Source: Cyanophyceae cyanobacterium
GTDB lineage: Bacteria > Cyanobacteriota > Cyanobacteriia > Cyanobacteriales > JBHJGN01
NCBI GenBank assembly: GCA_050331735.1
Contig: JBHJGN010000016.1
Coordinates: 1 to 64,000, forward strand
DNA: 64,000 nt
Direction of reading: 5' to 3'
Shown: one piece after another, positions 11,547 through 57,502 of the stretch
Layout: every line of letters begins with the position of its first letter
Position numbering within the stretch: position 1 is the first letter of the stretch
Notes under the pieces: model-generated
The model's input: the letters and a program-made list of their open reading frames with translations, nothing else
What the model was told of the DNA's origin: nothing
Databases searched by the model: none
Position numbers and translations under genes: made by a program

Positions 11547-14500
11547 TTACGTTGCCAAAGTTAGCTGAGATCCCTGATTGGTTTTGTAGACCTCGATGCG
11601 GTTCTGAAACGCTTCTTTGAACTGAGGCATGTGGGTCACGGTGAGAATGCAGGAAAAGTCAGCCGCGATCGCATTAATGGCGGCAATCAGGCGATCGCAG
11701 CCTTCAGCATCCTGAGTCCCAAATCCCTCATCGACGATCAGCATCTGGAGCGACGTTCCGGCTCGCTGAGCCAACAGCCGCGCCAGCGCTAACCGGATCG
11801 AAAAGTTAATCCGAAACGCTTCGCCGCCCGAGTAGGTTTCGTAGGCCCGGGTTCCTCTGGCATCAGCAATGAGGATTTCTAGGGTGTCGATTAGCTTAGC
11901 AGACTGCTTGCGGCTGCGTCCGGCCTTTTGCGTCAGGAACTGAACGTGCAGTTGATTTTCGGTGAGGCGAGAGAGAATCTGATTGGTTTCTGCCTCGAGC
12001 TGGGGCAGCACATTTTCGATCATCAGCGCCTGAATGCCGTTTTTCCCGAACGCTTGGGCTAGCTCCTGATAAACTCGACCCTGCTTGCGGACCTCTTTAA
12101 GCCTTGAACGAGTCTCTTGATATTGGGCCTGGAGCTGTTCTAGCTGGGTGAGCGTTTGCTCGAGTCGTCCCTGTTCGGCCAAGAGCTGGTCGAGGCGCTG
12201 TCGCCGCTGGTGAATCTGCTGCTCTAAGGCGCTAATTTCCGTGCCGTTATCTTGCCTCTGCTCAACTTGAGCCGTGAGACTGTCTAGATGAGCCTTCATC
12301 GCCTCTTGATTTTGCCGTCGTTCCTGCAAAGCCTGCTGAAGCTGTCGCAGATTTTCCTGAAGCTGAGGGGCTTGCCGCTGAGCCTCTTGCAGTTGTTGGT
12401 AGCGCAACTGCCAGGATTGCGCCTGCCGGAGCGTACTGACTAAATCGGTGTGATGCGATCGCTCGTATCCTAGCTGCGCTAGAGTCTGTTGCTCCTGCTC
12501 AATCTGTTGCTGCACCCTAGACGTCAGGCGTAACTGCTCCAATTGCTGCTGCACCGAAGTTAGCCGTTCGAGCAGTTTGGGCTTTTGAGACTCCAAAGTT
12601 TGTTGCCGACGCGCCGCTTCTTCAATTTTTGCCTGTTTAATTTCTGCCCAGCGCCAGCGTTCGACTTCTCCCCGCACCAGAGCGTGGGTTTGTTCGTCGT
12701 AGTTGAGCCGCTGAAGTTCCTGCTCTAGCCGCTGTATTTCCTGGTAAATTTCTTGAGCATAGCTACCGCTGGTGAGGGCGCTTTCGAGCTGTTCGCGTTC
12801 CTGCTGAAGCTGCTTGAGGCGCAGATGCTTTTCTCCGGTGGCTTCTAGCTGAGCTTCTAGCTGGCCGAACTTTTGAAGCAGAGAGTCATAGGGCGCTAAT
12901 TCACCGGTAATTTGAGCATACTCTGCCCGCAGCACCTGTAGCTCCCGTTCGCACACCGCCATCTGCTCTCGAATCATCCAAAGCTGTTCCTGAATTTCCT
13001 GCTGCTGAGTTTCGGTTTTATGGATAACGCGGTGACGAATCTGCTCGTTGAGATCTTGTTCGCACAGAGGACAGCTCGCTTCGGGCTTCTCTAACAGGTG
13101 TAGCTTTTGCCGCAGTTCCTCCCATTGCTTCTCGCACCCGCGCTGATTCTCCTGGAGTCGCTGTTGAAAACTCCTGCGTTCCTGTCCCTTTTCATTGACC
13201 CGCTGTTGATAGGTTCGCTTCTTCTCTAGTTCGCCGATTTCGGCATCGACGGCAATGACTGCCTGCCGAATTTGCGGTACCTGCGCCATCTCTGTTCGTA
13301 GTTGGGTAGTTGAGGAGCAAACCTGCTCTAATTTTGCCGTTAGTCGCGCTCGGGAATGTTCTAGCTTAGTTTGCAGCGAGGTCCGCTGCTGCAATAGAGG
13401 AGAGACGTGATGCTGAAGGCGATCTAATTTCTGGAGGCGATCGCGGCAGGCGTGAAGCTGCTGGAGGGCCTGCTGCACTTCCTCGGCCCGATTCAAAATG
13501 ACCTGGTTTTCTTGTTCCTGCTGTTCGAGCGTTTCGAGTCGAGTTTGAGTTTGCTGAATTTGCAGGTTCAGTTCATTGGTATGCTTGAGCAACTGCTGCT
13601 CTAGCTGCTGGAGGCGCTGCTGAGCCTCCTGATGGGCCTGAAATTTAGCGGCGAGAGCTTCTTCTTCCTGCTGAAGCCGCAGCAGGTGCTGGTATCCGGC
13701 GGTAATTTCTGGAGCTTGCTCGACCCGTTGTTGCACATCTGCTAACCTGTGGGCGAGGGCCGTTTGCTCTTTGAGGAGGCGATCGCAGTCGTGGCTGACG
13801 TTTTGGTATTGGGTTTGCTGCCAAATGAGCTGGTCTTCCCAGGTTTTTCGCTGATGCTGAACGGCCTGGAGCGCCTGCAATCGAGTCCGCGCTTCTCCCT
13901 GGATGCGCTGAAGCTGCTGTAATTCTTGCTTGACCCTGGCCTGTTCTTGAGCGATGGCTCCTCGCTGCTCTAGCTGCTCTTTCTGAGGCTGCAAGGCACT
14001 TTCTAACTGCTCGGCCTGCCCTTTTAACTGCTTGGAGTAATCTTTGGCCTGAGCGGCTAATTCTTCGTAGCGCTCCAGCTTCAAAAGATCGGCTAGAATT
14101 TGTTTCCGCTCGCTAGGGCGGCGCAGCATAAATTCATCGGCTCGTCCCTGGCGCAGGTAAGCCGAGTTAATAAAGGTGTCGTAGTCTAATTTCAGATTGT
14201 CAATAATCTGCTGCTGAGTGGCCCGCACTCCTTTAGCGGTGAGCGACAGAAACTGGTCTTCGTTCTTGAGCTGCAAATCTAGAGAACTGCCTCGTCCCCG
14301 CTGGCGGCTGCGAATGATGCGGTACGTTTGCCCATTACTCACGAACTGAAAATCGACCCGGACATCGTTTTCCCCCGCGTGGATCACGTCATCTTCAGTG
14401 GCGGTTCGGCTTTGCCCCCATACCGCCCAGGTAATCGCCTCTAAAAGAGAAGATTTCCCCGCGCCGTTGGCTCCACAGATGCAGGCCGTATGCAGACCGC

Positions 14501-14811: not shown

Positions 14812-16107
14812 ATGCCTAAAGTGAAGCGTCAACTGGTGCTATTTCTCGCTGTTCTGCTCGTGCTGGGGAGTGGGGCGATCGCTCGCTCGCAGTTGTTGAG
14901 CCAATCATCTCCGGTGGTGCTCGAACGAGTGGGAGATTTTTGCCGAGATGACCCCAAGTGCTTTAACCGCCTGCACCCAGCCATTGAGCCAGCCGCGACC
15001 GCTGAACCCGGTCAGCAAATTGTCTTTGGGGCTCGCGATGCTTTTGATGGCGTGTTGACCATTGAATCGACGGCGGAGGATGTAGCAGCAGCAGACCTAT
15101 CGGGAGTCCATCCCCTCACTGGTCCCGTGGCAATTGCCGGGGCGCAGCGGGGAGATGCGATCGCCGTGACCATTGTCGATATCGAGCCAGACGAATACGG
15201 CTACACTGCCATCGTTCCTGGCTTTGGGTTTCTCCGCGACCTGTTTCCCGATCCCTATCTGGCCAACTGGAATTTAACGCCGACAGCAGCAACGTCCGAA
15301 CAAATTCCCCAGGTGACCATTCCCTTTGCTGGCTTTACCGGGTCCATTGGCGTACTGCCGGGAGAACCAGAGTTAGAACGGTTTCTGGAACGAGAAGCGG
15401 CACTGGAGGAAGTCGGCGGGATTGTGCTGACTCCTCTGCCCACCGGTGCCCTACCGGAAGCTTTATGCGGCCCGAACGGAACTGAATCAGAGCGCTGCTT
15501 GAGAACCGTTCCTCCCCGCGAGAACGGTGGCAACATGGATATCAAGCAGATGCAGATTGGGACAACGGTCATTTTGCCCTGCTTCGTTGATGGCTGCGGG
15601 CTGTACGTCGGAGATGTTCACTTTGCCCAAGGAGACGGGGAAGTGTCCGGAACAGCCATTGAGATTGGAGCCAACGTGACGGTGACAGCCGAAGTCCGAC
15701 CCGGGTTAGGGGAATCGATGACCATGCCTCAGTTTGAGGGCGGCGATCAGCTCAAAGCCATTGAACCCGATGCTTTTCATGCCACAACGGGTATTCCAAT
15801 TAAACCAGCCGGAGAAATTCCACCTTACCTCACTTACCTTGATAGCGAAGAGATCGCGCCTCTCGAAAATCTCTCAGAAGATTTGACTCTGGCTGCCCGC
15901 AATGCCTTGATTGAGATGGTAGATTACATCGTAGCCGAGTACGAGCTAACCCGCGAACAGGCATATGTGGTGTGCTCTGTGGCGGCAGATTTGCGCATTG
16001 GTCAACTGGTAGATGTTCCTAACTACATTGTCTCCGCCATTCTCCCGCTCAATATTTTCAATCAAACCGGACAGCTAGAAACGAGTGCTGTTGTAGCCAA
16101 GCCATGA
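14812..16107 (+). CDS. Acetamidase/formamidase (FmdA/AmdA) family protein with N-terminal signal peptide
   Basis: Motifs HPLTGPV, ENGGNMD, GDVHFAQGDGEVSGTAIE and QLVDVPN. RBS GAGG. N-terminus MPKVKRQLVLFLAVLLVLGSGAIA. Confidence 0.88.
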   Translation: MPKVKRQLVLFLAVLLVLGSGAIARSQLLSQSSPVVLERVGDFCRDDPKCFNRLHPAIEPAATAEPGQQIVFGARDAFDGVLTIESTAEDVAAADLSGVHPLTGPVAIAGAQRGDAIAVTIVDIEPDEYGYTAIVPGFGFLRDLFPDPYLANWNLTPTAATSEQIPQVTIPFAGFTGSIGVLPGEPELERFLEREAALEEVGGIVLTPLPTGALPEALCGPNGTESERCLRTVPPRENGGNMDIKQMQIGTTVILPCFVDGCGLYVGDVHFAQGDGEVSGTAIEIGANVTVTAEVRPGLGESMTMPQFEGGDQLKAIEPDAFHATTGIPIKPAGEIPPYLTYLDSEEIAPLENLSEDLTLAARNALIEMVDYIVAEYELTREQAYVVCSVAADLRIGQLVDVPNYIVSAILPLNIFNQTGQLETSAVVAKP

Positions 16108-51240: not shown

Positions 51241-54216
51241 TCACTGAGCATCCATCCAGTTTTGCCCGACGCGCACATCCACAACCAAAGGTACGCTTAG
51301 CTCTACCGCATTCTCCATTGTAGAAACAATCTGAGGCTGCAACCCTTCCCACTCATCGGGGGGAACTTCAAACACCAGTTCATCGTGAACCTGAAGCAAC
51401 AACTGGGCCTGATAGTTTTGTAAAATGGAGTGTAGCTTGACCATCGCAATTTTAATAATATCAGCGCTAGAGCCTTGGATTGGGGCGTTAGCGGCGGCTC
51501 TAAGCAACTGGGCATCGCCGTAGTTCATCTTGATTTGGCTCAGGTTGAGCGCATCCGGGTTGCAGCCGCGCAGCTTCATTAAATTTTTGCTGGCAAAGTT
51601 GAAGTAGCGCCGCCGTCCTAAAATGGTGGTAACGTATCCATGAGCGATCGCCTCTCGCTTCATCTTCTCTAAATACGCAAATACCTCAGCATAGCGGCTG
51701 CGGTACTTTTCAATAAACGCTTTACCTTCTTTCGCGCTCACTCCCGCTTCTCTAGCGAATCGCTGCGCTCCCATGCCGTAGATCACGCCGAAGTTAATAA
51801 TCTTGCCAAGGCGGCGTTCTTGAGAAGTTACGGACTCTTTATCAAAAATTAGCTTCGCCGTCACGCCATGCACGTCACTTCCAGTACGATAGGCTTCTAG
51901 CAGCACTGGCTGCTGAGTGAGGTGAGCCAAAATTCTCAACTCAATTTGGGAATAATCCACCGCAACCAATTGCCATCCTGGCTTAGGAATAAATGCCTGA
52001 CGGATTTTGCGCGAGAACTCAGTCCGAATCGGAATGTTTTGCAGATTGGGATCAGAAGAAGAAAGTCGTCCGGTGGTGGTAACGCTTTGATTAAAGTTGG
52101 TATGTACTCTCCCCGTATCTGAACGAACCAGCGCTGGTAAAGCATCAACGTAGGTAGACTTGAGCTTAGACAGCGTACGATGCTCCAGCACCGTGCTGAC
52201 GATGGCGTGGTCATGCTGGAGCTTTTCTAAAGTCGCGTGATCGGTTGAATATCCTGTTTTTGTCTTTCGCGACTTACTGCGATCGAGTCCAAGTTTTTCA
52301 AACAAAATCTCGCCAAGCTGTTTCGGAGAACCGAGATTAAATTCCTCGCCTGCATACTGATAAGCCTGAGCTTCCAGCCTTTGCAAATCCTGTTCTAGCT
52401 GCTGAGACAGTCTGTGCAGATACTCTGTATCAATGCATACCCCGCGATCTTCCATCGCCGCTAAAACTGGTTCTAGTGGTTGCTCAACCTCCAACAGCAG
52501 CTTGCGGAGTTCCGGTTGTTTCAGTTCAGCGTTGAGGACTGAAACGAGGCAAAAAGTAACATACGCATCTAAGCCACAGTAGTCAGCTACTTTCTGAATT
52601 TCTAAATCGGCAATGGTTTTTCCTTTGGGAATTTTTAGCTCTTTATAACTCAGAGATCTGATTCCCGATAAATATTCCTCGGCTAAATCCTCTAGTTTAT
52701 GACTCTGTTCGGGACGCAGCACGTAGCTAGCCAGCATTGTATCAAACACAACTCCGGCTAGCCTAATTCCCTGATGCCACAAAATCACCCGGTCGAATTT
52801 AGCATTTTGAAAGGCTTTTGGGTAGTTTTCATCTTCTAGTATCGGACGCAGCGCTGATAGAACCTGCTCCTTGGCAAGCTGGTGTCCTTGAGTATGTGCG
52901 GTGGGAATATACGCTACATCAGTTGCCCCCCAACAGCAGCCAATGCCAACTAATTCAGCATCTCGCGGATTTAACGACGTTGTTTCTGTATCCCAAGCAA
53001 CGGGATGATTTTTGTCGGTATGAGTTTTAAGAAGCTCAACTAATTCTGTGAGTTGCTCTGAAGTGTCAATAATTTTTGGAGCAACGGACGATGAGTAAAC
53101 GACGGTTTGTTCGGCTGACTCCGGCTGTTCAGAACTTGAATCAGATCCCGCTGCAAATAATGCCAACTGTCCATCTGGATTAGATGTCGCTGAAGGAAGT
53201 GGTTCTTTCCCTGAAATATTAGCACTATCTTCTACGGGGGCAGATGTACCGCCAAATTTTTCCTGTAGCCGGTCAATTCTCTTGAGGAATGTTTTGAGCT
53301 CTAGCTCTTCTAAAATAGGTTTTAATGCTTCACTGTCAAATCCTTGAAGCTTGCACTCTTCTAAAACAACATCTACGGGAGTATCTAAGTGAATCTGTGC
53401 TAGGTACTGGGAGTGCAAAGCGTCTGCTTTGCCCGTTTCTAGCTTTTTCTGAACGGCTCCGCCAATGTTATCTAAGTTTTGATAGATTGTTGCTAGATCG
53501 CCGTATTCTTGCAGGAGTTTGACGGCGGTTTTATCTCCGATGCCGCGAACCCCGGGAATATTATCAGATTTGTCTCCACACAAGGCTTTATAGTCTACAA
53601 CCTGATGAGGCTTGATTCCAAGCTTTTCCTCAACAGCGATGGGATCCATTTCTATGTAGCCTTCGCTGGAGCGGTTTTTTAAAGCACTGTTGCTCAAGTA
53701 GAGAACTTTAATATTATTCTGGTCAACCAGTTGAAATAAATCGCGATCGCCTGTTAAAATCTTGACTCGATACCCAGCAAGGCTTGCCTTTTGGGCTAGT
53801 GTCCCTAAAACGTCATCGGCTTCGTATCCAGGAGCCGTAATCACTGGTAAGTTGAGAGCCGCCAGCAGCTCTTTGAGATTGTTTAAATCAGGAACAAAAT
53901 CTTCTGGAGTTTCTTTTCTGTCAGCTTTATAGTTCGCATCCGCTTCATGGCGAAAGGTTGGTTCTCCACGGTCAAAGGCAACAGCGACGAACTGAGGCTG
54001 CTGGGACTCCACCACCTGAGTCAAAGAATTAAGAAACCCAAAGCAGATGCTGGTGGGAATCCCCGTCGAAGTTTTGAGCGGACCTTTCCTCGATGTCGCA
54101 AACGCATAATAGGCCCGAAAAGCTAGAGAATGACCGTCTATCAAAACCAATAGCGGTGCTGTCTCTGACTCGGAACCGCCGGAGAAGGAAGGAGAGGAAG
54201 GAGAAAATTCAGACAT
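51241..54216 (-). CDS. polA: DNA polymerase I
   Basis: 5'-3' exonuclease (IDGHSLAFR, YEADD, GDKSDNIPGV); 3'-5' exonuclease (WDTET); polymerase motifs DYSQIELR, KIINFGVIYG and QVHDEL. Confidence 0.97.
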   Translation of the reverse strand: MSEFSPSSPSFSGGSESETAPLLVLIDGHSLAFRAYYAFATSRKGPLKTSTGIPTSICFGFLNSLTQVVESQQPQFVAVAFDRGEPTFRHEADANYKADRKETPEDFVPDLNNLKELLAALNLPVITAPGYEADDVLGTLAQKASLAGYRVKILTGDRDLFQLVDQNNIKVLYLSNSALKNRSSEGYIEMDPIAVEEKLGIKPHQVVDYKALCGDKSDNIPGVRGIGDKTAVKLLQEYGDLATIYQNLDNIGGAVQKKLETGKADALHSQYLAQIHLDTPVDVVLEECKLQGFDSEALKPILEELELKTFLKRIDRLQEKFGGTSAPVEDSANISGKEPLPSATSNPDGQLALFAAGSDSSSEQPESAEQTVVYSSSVAPKIIDTSEQLTELVELLKTHTDKNHPVAWDTETTSLNPRDAELVGIGCCWGATDVAYIPTAHTQGHQLAKEQVLSALRPILEDENYPKAFQNAKFDRVILWHQGIRLAGVVFDTMLASYVLRPEQSHKLEDLAEEYLSGIRSLSYKELKIPKGKTIADLEIQKVADYCGLDAYVTFCLVSVLNAELKQPELRKLLLEVEQPLEPVLAAMEDRGVCIDTEYLHRLSQQLEQDLQRLEAQAYQYAGEEFNLGSPKQLGEILFEKLGLDRSKSRKTKTGYSTDHATLEKLQHDHAIVSTVLEHRTLSKLKSTYVDALPALVRSDTGRVHTNFNQSVTTTGRLSSSDPNLQNIPIRTEFSRKIRQAFIPKPGWQLVAVDYSQIELRILAHLTQQPVLLEAYRTGSDVHGVTAKLIFDKESVTSQERRLGKIINFGVIYGMGAQRFAREAGVSAKEGKAFIEKYRSRYAEVFAYLEKMKREAIAHGYVTTILGRRRYFNFASKNLMKLRGCNPDALNLSQIKMNYGDAQLLRAAANAPIQGSSADIIKIAMVKLHSILQNYQAQLLLQVHDELVFEVPPDEWEGLQPQIVSTMENAVELSVPLVVDVRVGQNWMDAQ

Positions 54217-54319
54217 ACATCTATTTTAGCGAGAGACTTTGGCCACCAAGGAACCCAGAAGGGTGCTGCGACCATAAACTTGTTTTGGTCGTAGGGAAAT
54301 TCTGGGGCAGTAGTGAGAG

Positions 54320-54718
54320 CTAAGCACTATCTTGATTTTTGATATAGTCTTTAATTTTCTCTAAGGTAGCACCGCCGCAGGAGTTGACGGCATAACCCAG
54401 CGACCAAAGAACGGGCTTGCGATAAAACCCCGACAAATAATCGCTAAACTCCTTGCGAACCAGGCGAGAAGAAACCGTTTTAAGGTTGTTGACCAACTTG
54501 CTAGGAGCGACTTTTGGGTTAACGTCGAGCAGGACGTGCAGATGGTCAGCCTCCGTATTGAACTCCAAAACCGAGCAATCCCATTTAGAACAAGTATCGT
54601 GGAAGATTTGTTCTAGCCGTTCATGGATAGCTCGGTTAATCACTTTATAACGATATTTTGTCACTATAACTAAGTGTAGTTTCAAGCTGTAAACAGCTCC
54701 GCTCGTTGACTTGTGCAT
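54320..54718 (-). CDS. tnpA: Y1 HUH transposase TnpA
   Basis: HLVIVTKYR, EADHLH (HUH), LKTVSSR, LWSLGY and catalytic Y in KDYIKNQ. ATG at 54718. Confidence 0.93.
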   Translation of the reverse strand: MHKSTSGAVYSLKLHLVIVTKYRYKVINRAIHERLEQIFHDTCSKWDCSVLEFNTEADHLHVLLDVNPKVAPSKLVNNLKTVSSRLVRKEFSDYLSGFYRKPVLWSLGYAVNSCGGATLEKIKDYIKNQDSA

Positions 54719-54745
54719 TATTGGACTAAGTGATACAATCTGTTC

Positions 54746-56125
54746 ATGATACTCGCGCACGTCTACAAGCTCAAGCCCTCGCCCTCCCAATCGGCACTAA
54801 TGCACGACTGGCTGAACATGCTGCGGGCGCACTACAACTTCTCCTTGCGAGACCGTATTGAAGCCTATGAACAGGCAAGAAGTCCTGTGCTAGGTAACTA
54901 CTCTCGACTGGACAACCAGGGGAGGACGCGACACCGGAACTTGGTTCCGGTGCGCGAGTCGTCCGTGGTGTGCTGCCCATTGACTTGCTCAGTTAACAAA
55001 ACAGCAACAGTGGGCTATCCTTGGACAAAAGTGGGGAAGAGGCGCTCTGCGGGGATGCAGCAGGACGCTTACCTACCGGAGATGAAGTCAGCTAGACCTT
55101 GGTATAAGCGAATTAACTCTGACGTTCTGCAAACGAACCTGCGGCGGCTCAACGATGCCTTTAACCGTTTCTTTGACGGACTAGAAAAGTATCCCCAGTT
55201 CAAGACTCGCAGTAAGTTTCGCTCTTTTAGCTACAAGCCCAAGCAGGTCAAGATGGAAGGGAATCGAGTTTATCTGCCAGGGTTGGGCTGGATGCGCTTT
55301 TACCTATCTCGTCCTCTGCCAGAGGGGTTTGAAATTAGAACGGTAACGGTAAGGCGCAAGAGTGACGGCTGGCATATGTCGGTGCGGCTAGAGAACGAGG
55401 ATGTTCCTAGCCTGATGCCAAAAGAAACCAGCCAAATTGGTTCAGCCATAGCAGTAGACTTGGGCATTAGGAAGCTAGCGGCGTTGAGCAACGGGGAGTT
55501 GGTTGAAAATCCTAGATTTTCCAAGCGAGTCGAGCGCCGAAAACGGATTAGGCAAAAAGCCGCTGCCAGGAAGATCAAAGGGTCGAAGAATCGCGCCTCG
55601 GCGTATCGATATTTGGCGAAGCTAGACCAGAAAGTAGCTAGAGGGCGAGCCGACTATCACTGGAAGCTAGCTAACCAGTTAGCCCGTGCTGGAGATGCCA
55701 TTATTTTTGAGGCACTCAACATCCGAGGCATGATGGCAAGGTGCAAGCCGAAGCAGTGTCCAGAAACTGGGAAGTATCTTAAGAACGGGCAGGCGGCTAA
55801 GCGCGGTCTCAATCGCGTTATTGCTGATGCTGGCTGGGGAGAGCTAAAGCTAAAGACGAAAGCCGTAGCTGCGAAGCTAGGCTTGATCGTCTGCGAAGTT
55901 GACCCCAAGTTCAGCTCTCAAGAGTGTAGTGAATGCGGCTATATCTCTCCGGTTAATCGAGACAAGGAGAAGTTTCTGTGCGAGGCTTGCGGGTACTTCT
56001 GCGACGCAGATACTCAGGCTTCGCATAATTTGCTCCAAAGAGGACTAAAATCTCTGGGAATTAGTCCAGCCCAGCTACGGGGAGTCCCCTCGAAAGTTAC
56101 ACCTAGGAGTTCTGCTCAGCCGTGA
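54746..56125 (+). CDS. tnpB: RNA-guided endonuclease TnpB
   Basis: N-terminal YKLKP; RuvC-I AVDLG; RuvC-II IIFEAL; zinc finger CSECG/CEACG; RuvC-III DADTQAS. Confidence 0.92.
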   Translation: MILAHVYKLKPSPSQSALMHDWLNMLRAHYNFSLRDRIEAYEQARSPVLGNYSRLDNQGRTRHRNLVPVRESSVVCCPLTCSVNKTATVGYPWTKVGKRRSAGMQQDAYLPEMKSARPWYKRINSDVLQTNLRRLNDAFNRFFDGLEKYPQFKTRSKFRSFSYKPKQVKMEGNRVYLPGLGWMRFYLSRPLPEGFEIRTVTVRRKSDGWHMSVRLENEDVPSLMPKETSQIGSAIAVDLGIRKLAALSNGELVENPRFSKRVERRKRIRQKAAARKIKGSKNRASAYRYLAKLDQKVARGRADYHWKLANQLARAGDAIIFEALNIRGMMARCKPKQCPETGKYLKNGQAAKRGLNRVIADAGWGELKLKTKAVAAKLGLIVCEVDPKFSSQECSECGYISPVNRDKEKFLCEACGYFCDADTQASHNLLQRGLKSLGISPAQLRGVPSKVTPRSSAQP

Positions 56126-56341
56126 AATGCGGTCGCCCATCTGAATGCGGGACGCTGCATTCCGCAGTTCCCGCATGAGGAGCGACAGAAAACATCATCG
56201 GGGTTGCTCGATGAGCCTAGGAACCCTCGGCAGCTCAGTCTGTTCGAGTGGAGGAATGGTCAAGTAATTGGCTGTTCAGATTCTGCGACTGTAGCTTTAG
56301 CTCAATCGTAGAGTATGTCAAAAGGACAAATGAGACAACCG
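56075..56341 (+). ncRNA. Putative TnpB omega/reRNA (boundaries approximate) with flank-derived guide
   Basis: Established IS605 architecture: the reRNA overlaps the tnpB 3' end, runs through the right-end hairpin and takes about 16-20 nt of flank (from 56322) as guide. Confidence 0.55.
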
Positions 56342-56782
56342 CCCCATCTGTTCAGAGACTTTGTTGAGCTTATTCGCCAACCTTTACTGTCTTTTAATAA
56401 GTGTAAAGTCCTGTAAATATCAGGAGCCATGTTTTAAAGAAGGCCTTATCTTAATAAATAAGCACAGAGGCAAGCAAAGCTTAAAGGAAACAGAGATTAG
56501 AACTTGTGCTTCCCGTTCTCAATCTCACCGGCAACTCCTAGAGCTAGCGTCAATTTTAGATAGTTCTGCTTCTAATCTGCTAAGAGATTAATGCTAACAG
56601 ATTAGTCAAAGTAGCCGCTATAAGTATCGCCTGAATCGGTGTTGTGATGCTAGCGAATTAAGAAGCTCTGTTGGTACGTCCACTCTAGTAATAACATTCT
56701 TCCTGTTTAGTTAGGAGTCCAAATCGCTTTTACGTCTTGTACACCCGATCGCCCGCCCTCCCTTGAAGGCGGGCAAATTGTT

Positions 56783-57415
56783 TTAAAGACAAAAGCTCTG
56801 GATTTGCTGCCAAATCGTCGGCAATGTACTGGTTAACGTGTGATCGCTCTTCAGCTCAATTAATTCTACCCAAGGACGCTGACTAGCATAGTCTCGACTC
56901 GCCTGCACTGGAATTACTTCATCCGAGCGTCCGTGAAGAATTAGCGTTGGCACAGGGCGCTGTAGCTGAAGTTCTGGGTACTGCTGGATATCAGGAACGA
57001 ACTGATAGTGAAGCGGGAGACAGCGCCCCTCGCCGTAGTGATAGATTGATAAATACCCAGTTTCCTGCCATTGCTGAAGCCGACCTCCGAGTTGAGGCAA
57101 CCAGTATTCCAGAAAGCTAAAAGCCGGGGCAAGAAGGACCAGTCGCTGTACCTGCTGATGCTGCTGCCCCAACCACGCTGCCGTTAAGCCCCCAAAACTA
57201 GAGCCAATAAGGGTGATTGGGGTAGACGCTGGAAATGCTGCTGCCGCCTGCTGCAATTGCCGGGTTAGCGTCAGATGCGAAAAATCCTCCTGATTCAGGT
57301 CGAGAATCTGAAGGTCAATGTGGCGTTGCCAAAAGCGATCGCGCAAGTACTGAGCCTTTGTTGACCGGGGACCAGAAGCAAAGCCGTGGAGGTAGATGTA
57401 GGCAGGTTGAACCAC
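56783..57415 (-). CDS. YqiA/YcfP-family esterase (alpha/beta hydrolase)
   Basis: YLHGFASGPRSTKA, GSSFGG, HGRSDEVIP and SDH. Confidence 0.88.
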   Translation of the reverse strand: MVQPAYIYLHGFASGPRSTKAQYLRDRFWQRHIDLQILDLNQEDFSHLTLTRQLQQAAAAFPASTPITLIGSSFGGLTAAWLGQQHQQVQRLVLLAPAFSFLEYWLPQLGGRLQQWQETGYLSIYHYGEGRCLPLHYQFVPDIQQYPELQLQRPVPTLILHGRSDEVIPVQASRDYASQRPWVELIELKSDHTLTSTLPTIWQQIQSFCL

Positions 57416-57502
57416 AATTTTATCAACGCTCTTAGCTCTTAGTTTCTAAGTTTTATACTAATCAGTTAGCGAATAGCTAAGGGCTAATCGCTATTCACTA
57501 GC

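Follow-up and report, generated by a model that had tools for sequence, protein, structure and literature searches.

An in-frame palindrome separates tnpB of a cyanobacterial IS200/IS605 element from a putative clamp-binding tail encoded within its omegaRNA scaffold

We describe here an insertion sequence (IS) of the IS200/IS605 family in a 64,000-nucleotide stretch of cyanobacterial DNA (contig JBHJGN010000016.1 of assembly GCA_050331735.1, positions 1 to 64,000; the whole stretch is called the window below), and more precisely the 3′ end of its tnpB gene, where a C-terminal protein tail and the scaffold of a guide RNA (omegaRNA, or reRNA) appear to be written in the same bases. In the window copy a 66-nt palindrome is inserted in frame and brings a TGA, which leaves a TnpB of 459 aa cut off from this tail; homologous TnpB proteins translate the tail, the pentapeptide QLxLF within it is conserved at the protein level, and the RNA pairs that overlap it covary. 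The reading that we favor, with a probability of roughly 80%, is that TnpB of this clade carries a tail for the beta sliding clamp (DnaN), co-encoded with the omegaRNA, and that this IS200/IS605 copy has lost it through the palindrome and its TGA. The positions concerned are the following.

tnpB: 54746..56125, plus strand; 459 codons plus TGA, shorter than the homologues of 477-488 aa
tnpB stop codon TGA: 56123-56125, plus strand; inside the left end of the 66-nt insertion
Palindromic insertion: 56119..56184, no strand assigned; 66 nt (22 codons), splits a CAA (Gln) codon and brings the TGA
Orphaned tail frame: 56126..56311, plus strand; 61 codons plus TAG (56309-56311)
QLSLF codons, a putative beta-clamp-binding motif: 56231..56245, plus strand; CAG CTC AGT CTG TTC

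Translation of 56036-56320 gives PRSSAQP, a stop, NAVAHLNAGRCIPQFPHEERQKTSSGLLDEPRNPRQLSLFEWRNGQVIGCSDSATVALAQS and a second stop, and so bears out the TGA, the 61 open codons, the TAG and the QLSLF motif to which a preliminary description of this DNA, made from its letters alone, had drawn attention. The motif starts 35 codons past the TGA and hence lies outside the translated protein of the window copy. An open frame of 61 codons has, by simple arithmetic, a chance of ~0.05, (61/64)^61; that this one stands above chance is due to homology, because the same tail is translated at the C-terminus of related TnpB proteins. Indeed, the last 42 tail codons (56183-56308) are homologous to that C-terminus. 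The motif also fits the beta-clamp consensus, as had been proposed, in the form used by Gomez et al. (2014, PMC3971601).

How did the tail come to lie beyond a stop codon? A contig of depth 88 in X1, a single DNA metagenome run with this stretch, joins 56118 directly to 56185, skipping the 66 nt, and has the variant bases of C45 and C70, two contigs of the window's genome that begin with GCTCAACAGAAG, the uninterrupted form. Both contigs start within the tail; for the sequence upstream of it we rely on the X1 joint. The translation of C45, AQQKTSPGLLGEPRNPRQLSLFEWRNGQVIGCSDSASLA (AQQKTSPGLLGEPRNPRQLSLFEW..), is in frame, and the sister copies read SSAQQKTS..PRQLSLFEW with no stop (SSA-Q-QKTS at the junction); the frame is continuous across the junction because 66 is 22 x 3 and C45 is a natural sequence. 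Contigs of X1 reproduce the hairpin-bearing form too, with 0 differences over 56060-56269, although X1 is possibly the source sample, so that the window form is not independently confirmed by it. Both forms, with and without the 66 nt, exist in X1, and the earlier claim that a hairpin insertion cuts off the tail is upheld by the joint and by the TGA inside the insert. The hairpin after the stop is likewise real: the DNA of 56119-56184 folds at -17.1 kcal/mol (z -2.57, with 7 of 200 shuffles folding as well), and the hairpin also forms when 56060-56340 is folded as RNA (z -3.65).

The insertion point is 37 codons upstream of QLSLF, and the insert lies ~10 nt 5′ of the first covarying omegaRNA helix. 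A small covarying hairpin of the form NNNCTG-AANNAA-CAGNNN was seen upstream of the scaffold (~56110-56190) in six other loci (L059, L061, L062, L064, L071, L073); the closest relatives, P0001-P0003 and L045, are without it. From these sequences, this site of the gene and of the RNA seems tolerant to stem-loops.

The body of the sister IS variant was not found in the assembly, and the first 25 nt of C45 and C70 occur on no other contig; this body being missing, the genome must therefore contain a minimum of two copies beyond those seen on its contigs. C61 was considered as the missing body and rejected, its TnpB being only 35% identical and its end different. C45 and C70 start at the same base in the sister-variant tail (first 141 nt), and the depth in X1 is ~88-99 there and ~52-55 for the window copy.

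When the 61-aa tail was used as a query against longer proteins, three TnpB of 477-488 aa were matched in their C-terminal part (E 3.7e-12 to 5.3e-9), these being the three with E <= 0.01 among 43 candidates. The TnpB proteins P0001-P0003 end in KVTLRSSRKKTSLGLLDEPKNPRQLCLFEWRNGQVTGCSDSATIA or similar. The window TnpB is 74-78% identical to P0001-P0003 and to L045, and in the alignment it stops at PRSSAQP where the relatives go on with RSSRKKTSLGLLDEPKNPRQLCLFEW. The open reading frames (ORFs) of P0001-P0003 run through the tail without any hairpin; homologues thus stop elsewhere than the window copy and QLSLF is conserved in their protein, as the preliminary description had anticipated. The family is widespread in the window's order: P0002 has a match (E <= 1e-60) in 85 of the 401 genomes searched, and the tail DNA has one in 19 of 301, the window's own genome included; the named records among the relatives are cyanobacteria, and a scan of genome contigs gave 10 loci.

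We classified the tails of 38 rows, each a distinct 3′ end from loci L001-L084, a set fetched in part by DNA similarity to the tail, which inflates the share with the motif: Q[LIVM]x[LIVM]F stands in frame ahead of the first stop in 18, past a stop in one (the window) and in another frame in one (L069), while 17 have no motif (one of them a weak second hit in L071) and one is ended by the contig end. Of the best 150 representatives of the P0002 family, 11 have QLxLF within their last 60 aa, and 0 of 150 have it elsewhere in the protein. Its distance to the upstream EPxNP varies among tails, and in distant homologues (L058, L065, L072, L053, L083) it is found at other spacings or doubled. Two QLxLF motifs ~40 residues apart were seen in one tail at L053:2521-2733 and L083:1312-1518, and also in P0008 and P0040; the pairs in these distant TnpB homologues are QLSLF with QLCLF, QLMLF with QLDLF, QLRLF with QLNLF and QLVLF with QLELF. 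An early-stop clade (L049, L051, L081, L084) appears to be without the whole middle of the scaffold, a reading made from translated tails and hence unused as a decay test for an untranslated QLxLF.

The same DNA was then considered as RNA, with the following features.

omegaRNA (reRNA) scaffold core, conserved: 56195..56321, plus strand; RNAalifold consensus, the guide would be the flank from ~56322
Helix 1: 56195-202/56207-214, plus strand
Helix 2: 56224-228/56246-251, plus strand; CCCUC / GAG-GG, encloses helix 3
Helix 3: 56230-233/56240-243, plus strand; the QLxLF codons form this helix plus its loop
Helix 4: 56255-263/56268-276, plus strand
Helix 5: 56282-285/56309-312, plus strand

On 18 right ends, RNAalifold gave five helices; of their 30 pairs, 18 have undergone compensatory change. 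Pairing was found in 95.9% of cells against 33-49% when the 3′ partners were slid, and 0 of 500 shuffles reached the observed values. A structured scaffold that overlaps the 3′ end of tnpB and ends at the right end of the element has the sequence characteristics of an omegaRNA, and a scan of 53500-57500 against Rfam with E up to 1 returned no family. TnpB of IS200/IS605 elements such as ISDra2 reportedly works with an omegaRNA (reRNA). The present locus resembles the ISDra2 type in having its scaffold at the 3′ end of tnpB, as far as the right end, and in a TnpB with helix-turn-helix (HTH), RuvC and zinc ribbon parts; it differs from known TnpB/omegaRNA systems in that the bases of an RNA hairpin also encode a putative short linear motif for a host protein, and in matching no Rfam family. 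Within helix 3, CAG 56231-33 pairs with CTG 56240-42, and the loop consists of the codons of the second and third residues of the motif (L2 and x).

How both constraints act on these bases can be read from the codons of 27 motif instances in tails (29 rows less two chance matches outside TnpB tails, in L029 and on the plus strand of L066). Q, L2 and F are invariant in 27/27, and the fourth residue (L4) is Leu in 26, with a single Ile; Q17, L18 and F21 are also invariant in alignment A2, that of the tails. L2, placed in the hairpin loop, is always Leu, written with each of the six codons. TTY is absent there: a third-base pyrimidine is found in 0 of 9 T-initial and 11 of 18 C-initial codons (p 0.003 by a Fisher test that ignores phylogeny and relatedness). 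Position x takes nine residues: Ser in 16 instances (AGY 9, TCN 7), Asn in 3, Cys in 2, and Glu, Val, Leu, Lys, Gly and Met in one each; Cys (TGT) is a possible bridge between the AGY and TCN codons of Ser. In this sample QLxLF is thus kept at the protein level with its third position free.

The Q and L4 codons are CAA with TTG in 16 instances, CAG with CTG in 7 and CAG with TTG (a G-U pair) in one, and are unpaired in 3; the third base of Q and the first base of L4 behave as a covarying base pair that is synonymous on both sides. Compensatory changes in helices 1, 4 and 5 alter residues, and those in helix 3 are synonymous swaps only. In four loci without the motif (L075, L057, L078, L076) the outer stem is kept and the inner hairpin is deleted or replaced; because motif-less copies do this, the RNA has no need of the QLxLF sequence as such. 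Constraints of RNA and protein are both visible on the bases of QLxLF.

Could the tail dock on the clamp? Beta-clamp-binding peptides are reported to follow a consensus. A complex predictor was given DnaN (378 aa, L085:742-1875) with 28 orthologues (alignment A3) and the 42-aa tail with 23 homologous tails (A2). The model scored 0.73 (runs 0.74, 0.73 and 0.72), and the best of three controls 0.11; 116 of 157 solved complexes attain the score mark, as do 2 of 215 mismatched pairs, a calibration that is only rough for our own alignments. Between runs, at least 60% of contacts are shared, with a predicted local distance difference test (pLDDT) value of 50-53 for the partner. Modelled contacts of the tail involve residues 15-21 (PRQLSLF, P15-F21), W23 and G26-V28, and those of DnaN residues 157-160, 176-181, 247-255, 328-330, 354-356 and the C-terminal 370-376, a region that corresponds in the Escherichia coli clamp to the cleft in which peptides bind, between domains II and III. 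In these models the QLxLF tail is docked on DnaN, which it may also bind in vivo. The preliminary description had posited an ancestral clamp tail that overlaps the reRNA; the tail in relatives and its overlap with a covarying scaffold hold good, and the clamp contact stands as a model.

Several of our observations weigh against the favored reading. The success of the model may reflect the clamp-peptide complexes already solved, in which case it would speak of likeness and not of binding. Only 11 of the 150 representatives of the P0002 family carry QLxLF, 17 of the 38 classified rows have no motif and the way this set was fetched flatters the motif, and QLxLF is absent from all 10 of the other TnpB paralogue loci examined in the window's genome. 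The codon test at L2 treats related copies as if they were independent. Finally, the bases of the motif also pair in an RNA helix, and GAGCCTAGCAACCCT and TTTGAGTGGAGG next to them are conserved as nucleotides; because of this helix, part of what looks like protein conservation is RNA conservation.

This last point leads to the alternative that QLSLF is a mere by-product of a translated omegaRNA hairpin, conserved as RNA only and without clamp binding, which we consider unlikely though by no means negligible. In its favor, CAG is the reverse complement of CTG, and the bases of the motif make up helix 3 and border on helix 2. The Q and L4 codons vary together as paired bases amid neighbours that are invariant in DNA, and L075, L057 and L078 keep the outer stem without the motif. 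However, an RNA hairpin does not by itself explain why L2, in the loop, stays Leu through six codons, why Ser is swapped between AGY and TCN, or why compensation is confined to synonymous changes in helix 3 when the other helices change residues freely. Copies without the inner hairpin indicate that the RNA can do without that sequence, and the model docks the motif on DnaN. Moreover, TnpB clades with unrelated tails have the motif at their C-termini (as also in supplementary table S5 of PMC3971601), and it never occurs in the body of the 150 representatives.

A clamp tail lost to an insertion also has to be set against two other accounts of the TGA and of the hairpin that follows it. If the TGA were read through or recoded, with the hairpin as a selenocysteine insertion sequence (SECIS) or other stimulator, the product would be a full-length TnpB with 22 inserted residues and the clamp tail. 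The insert of exactly 22 codons, the frame open across insert and tail, and a stable hairpin that begins 8 nt past the UGA are all compatible with this proposal, but it appears highly improbable: among 40 tRNAs predicted by ARAGORN in the assembly none is a tRNA-Sec or a suppressor (selA and selB were not searched for), the Rfam scan of the region gave no match, hairpins of the same family occur elsewhere with no stop, as at C38, where the hairpin is in frame, and the open frame is accounted for by a recent in-frame insertion together with RNA constraint on the tail. The possibility of read-through that the preliminary description had kept in view thus finds no backing in these searches. We give even less credence to the hairpin being an ancestral omegaRNA stem lost in the relatives, or an artefact of assembly. 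Distant homologues do have the covarying NNNCTG-AANNAA-CAGNNN hairpin at about the same place, and CATCTGAAT in the window resembles its 5′ arm; yet P0001-P0003, L045 and the sister copies of the same sample are without the 66-nt hairpin and show clean boundaries, and related palindromes lie in unrelated sequence contexts. As for an artefact, it is the X1 contigs with the identical hairpin form that speak against it, with the reservation already made on the independence of X1.

If the tail is a clamp tail lost by insertion, the following course of events may be proposed. TnpB of this clade normally ends in a tail of ~40 residues, EPxNPxQLxLFEW, encoded by the DNA of the omegaRNA scaffold; QLxLF would be the DnaN-binding motif, and its codons also make the inner hairpin of that scaffold. 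Where the tail is intact, as in the relatives, it would hook the TnpB-omegaRNA complex to beta clamps on freshly replicated DNA. TnpA excises its element from the single-stranded lagging-strand template. There TnpA would excise the element, and cleavage of the emptied site by TnpB would be repaired from the sister copy. In the window copy a mobile 66-nt palindrome has landed in frame and brought the TGA, and a tail-less TnpB of 459 aa would be made; the tail codons persist as omegaRNA sequence, with the core downstream of the insert intact. The broader proposal, that these 15 bases are doubly selected as an omegaRNA hairpin and as a QLxLF clamp anchor coupling donor-site cleavage to excision at the fork, and that in-frame palindromes recurrently disarm or remodel tnpB, is tentative, and we would put it somewhat below even odds.

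The inserted palindrome has relatives at C38 (~11860-11920) and C81 (~15220-15275), and in another genome at L036, with the common shape GCCCATCTGAGTGCCGGAAC-CGA-GTTCCGGCACGAGGAGCG. They were recognized through degenerate patterns only, as a BLAST of the 66-nt hairpin region showed no near-identical second copy in the genome. The C38, C81 and L036 copies read GCGGAA where the window copy reads GTGAAA; because these three relatives do so, the TGA is a feature of the window copy or of its subfamily. In X1, loose ends at 56120 and 56152 suggest that more copies exist in other contexts. The three copies of the 66-nt family found in the genome all lie in or beside tnpB genes (the other two at loci L010/L015 and L012/L014), and the C38 copy is in frame inside an intact TnpB paralogue of 437 aa (SAEYDCPSECGNRVPARGAV). 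This may be a preference for tnpB or mobilization in cis by TnpA, the numbers being too small to decide.

The window tnpB holds another palindrome, further upstream.

First small palindromic insertion: 54921..54966, no strand assigned; 46 nt, in frame, in the N-terminal region of tnpB

This insert adds 15 alignment columns, G-RTRHRNLVPVRESSVV-CC against G-E-CC in relatives; an identical copy lies at C65:553-598, and the DNA folds at -18.4 kcal/mol (z -5.42). Its core is CCGGAAC-TTG-GTTCCGG, with related cores at C65:2577-2593 and C44:80747-80763; it has a GCCGGAAC..GTTCCGGC core in common with the C81 and L036 relatives of the 66-nt family, and its end, GTCGTCC, recalls repetitive extragenic palindromes (REPs) with a CGTC tag. 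As repeated palindromes that are present or absent at homologous sites, the elements are REP-like, or like miniature inverted-repeat transposable elements (MITEs). REP and REPIN sequences are reported to be small palindromic mobile repeats, and very small repeats have reportedly been found in cyanobacteria. The present elements resemble REPs and REPINs as imperfect palindromes of 46-66 nt, in few copies and tolerated in frame in genes; unlike them, the 66-nt family has only three copies in the genome, all in or beside tnpB. No GTAG tag was seen in the palindromes, and by eye the 66-nt element is without such a tag.

The element as a whole is laid out as follows.

IS200/IS605-family insertion sequence: 54240..56321, plus strand; left end approximate (+/-15 nt), right end GTATGTCAA
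tnpA, Y1 (HUH) transposase: 54320..54790, minus strand; 156-aa ORF as listed, PF01797 Y1_Tnp, E 4.4e-40

The ends were placed by alignment and similarity. At the right end (~56321), the starts of C45 and C70 match 56185-56322 at 85-86% and part from the window sequence past TATGTCAA in the alignment of right-end copies. The left end (~54240) is where similarity to L045, the closest DNA relative, sets in, and L045 shares the palindrome GCGACCA..TGGTCGT that stands there; at the right end the terminal helix (helix 5) covaries. The tnpA match spans positions 2-121 of the 121 of its Pfam profile. TnpB matches PF01385 (OrfB_IS605, E 1.9e-19), PF07282 (Cas12f1-like TNB, zinc ribbon, 5.5e-15) and PF12323 (HTH_OrfB_IS605, 4.1e-8). 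Its DLG, FE and DAD segments, presumably the RuvC I-III motifs, are invariant in the TnpB alignment A5 and kept in the 459-aa protein, and the nuclease core of this protein looks intact. With a Y1 TnpA and a TnpB that has OrfB_IS605 and TNB domains, the locus is by its domains of the IS200/IS605 type. As listed, the ORFs of tnpA and tnpB, which lie head to head on opposite strands, share 45 nt (54746-54790); tnpA probably starts further in, so that a short divergent promoter region would remain.

The left neighbour of the element is the gene of DNA polymerase I (51241-54216, minus strand). At PolA residue 350 (53155-53169, minus strand), in the linker that follows the 5′ nuclease domain, stands QLALF (NPDGQLALFAAGSD), which is likely a clamp-binding motif of this host repair polymerase and of the same type as that of the TnpB tail.

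The motif itself is not new. A putative beta-binding motif at the C-terminus of cyanobacterial IS200/IS605 OrfB was put forward, with nine examples in supplementary table S5, by Gomez et al. (2014, Genome Biol Evol, PMC3971601); the entry for Crocosphaera watsonii ends in SVSLEIEPGNPQQLSLFEWVNGEVIPC (EIEPGNPQQLSLFEWVNGEVIPC) before its stop. Protein family, position and motif are the same as here, and Crocosphaera belongs to the window's clade (cf. L062). That paper predates the recognition of OrfB/TnpB as an RNA-guided nuclease, and its available portion mentions no overlap with a guide RNA and shows no binding test of an OrfB peptide. Unlike the OrfB proteins of its table, the window copy has lost the motif from the protein. 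In the literature on TnpB with the sliding clamp, DnaN or cyanobacterial omegaRNA, we found no link between motif and omegaRNA, no binding test of TnpB to the clamp and no follow-up of the 2014 listing; the overlap with RNA, the truncation described here and palindromes in tnpB were not found in print.

Other transposon proteins that act at the fork contact the clamp. A contact of Tn7 TnsE with the clamp has reportedly been observed. TnpA of IS608 interacts with DnaN, and mutation of a candidate motif did not abolish the interaction, according to Lavatine et al. (2016, PMC5027513). TnpB with its tail would resemble IS608 TnpA and Tn7 TnsE in this respect, with the difference that the clamp partner is there a transposase or a target selector and would here be an RNA-guided nuclease.

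In conclusion, if TnpB of this clade does carry a clamp anchor, it would provide a concrete link between nuclease and replisome for replication-coupled single-strand transposition. One sequence would then serve two readers, and a change in the motif would also alter the guide scaffold, a constraint for engineering; TnpB gave rise to Cas12 and is itself a compact genome editor. The damaged window copy and its uninterrupted sister copies may serve as a natural comparison of TnpB without and with its tail.

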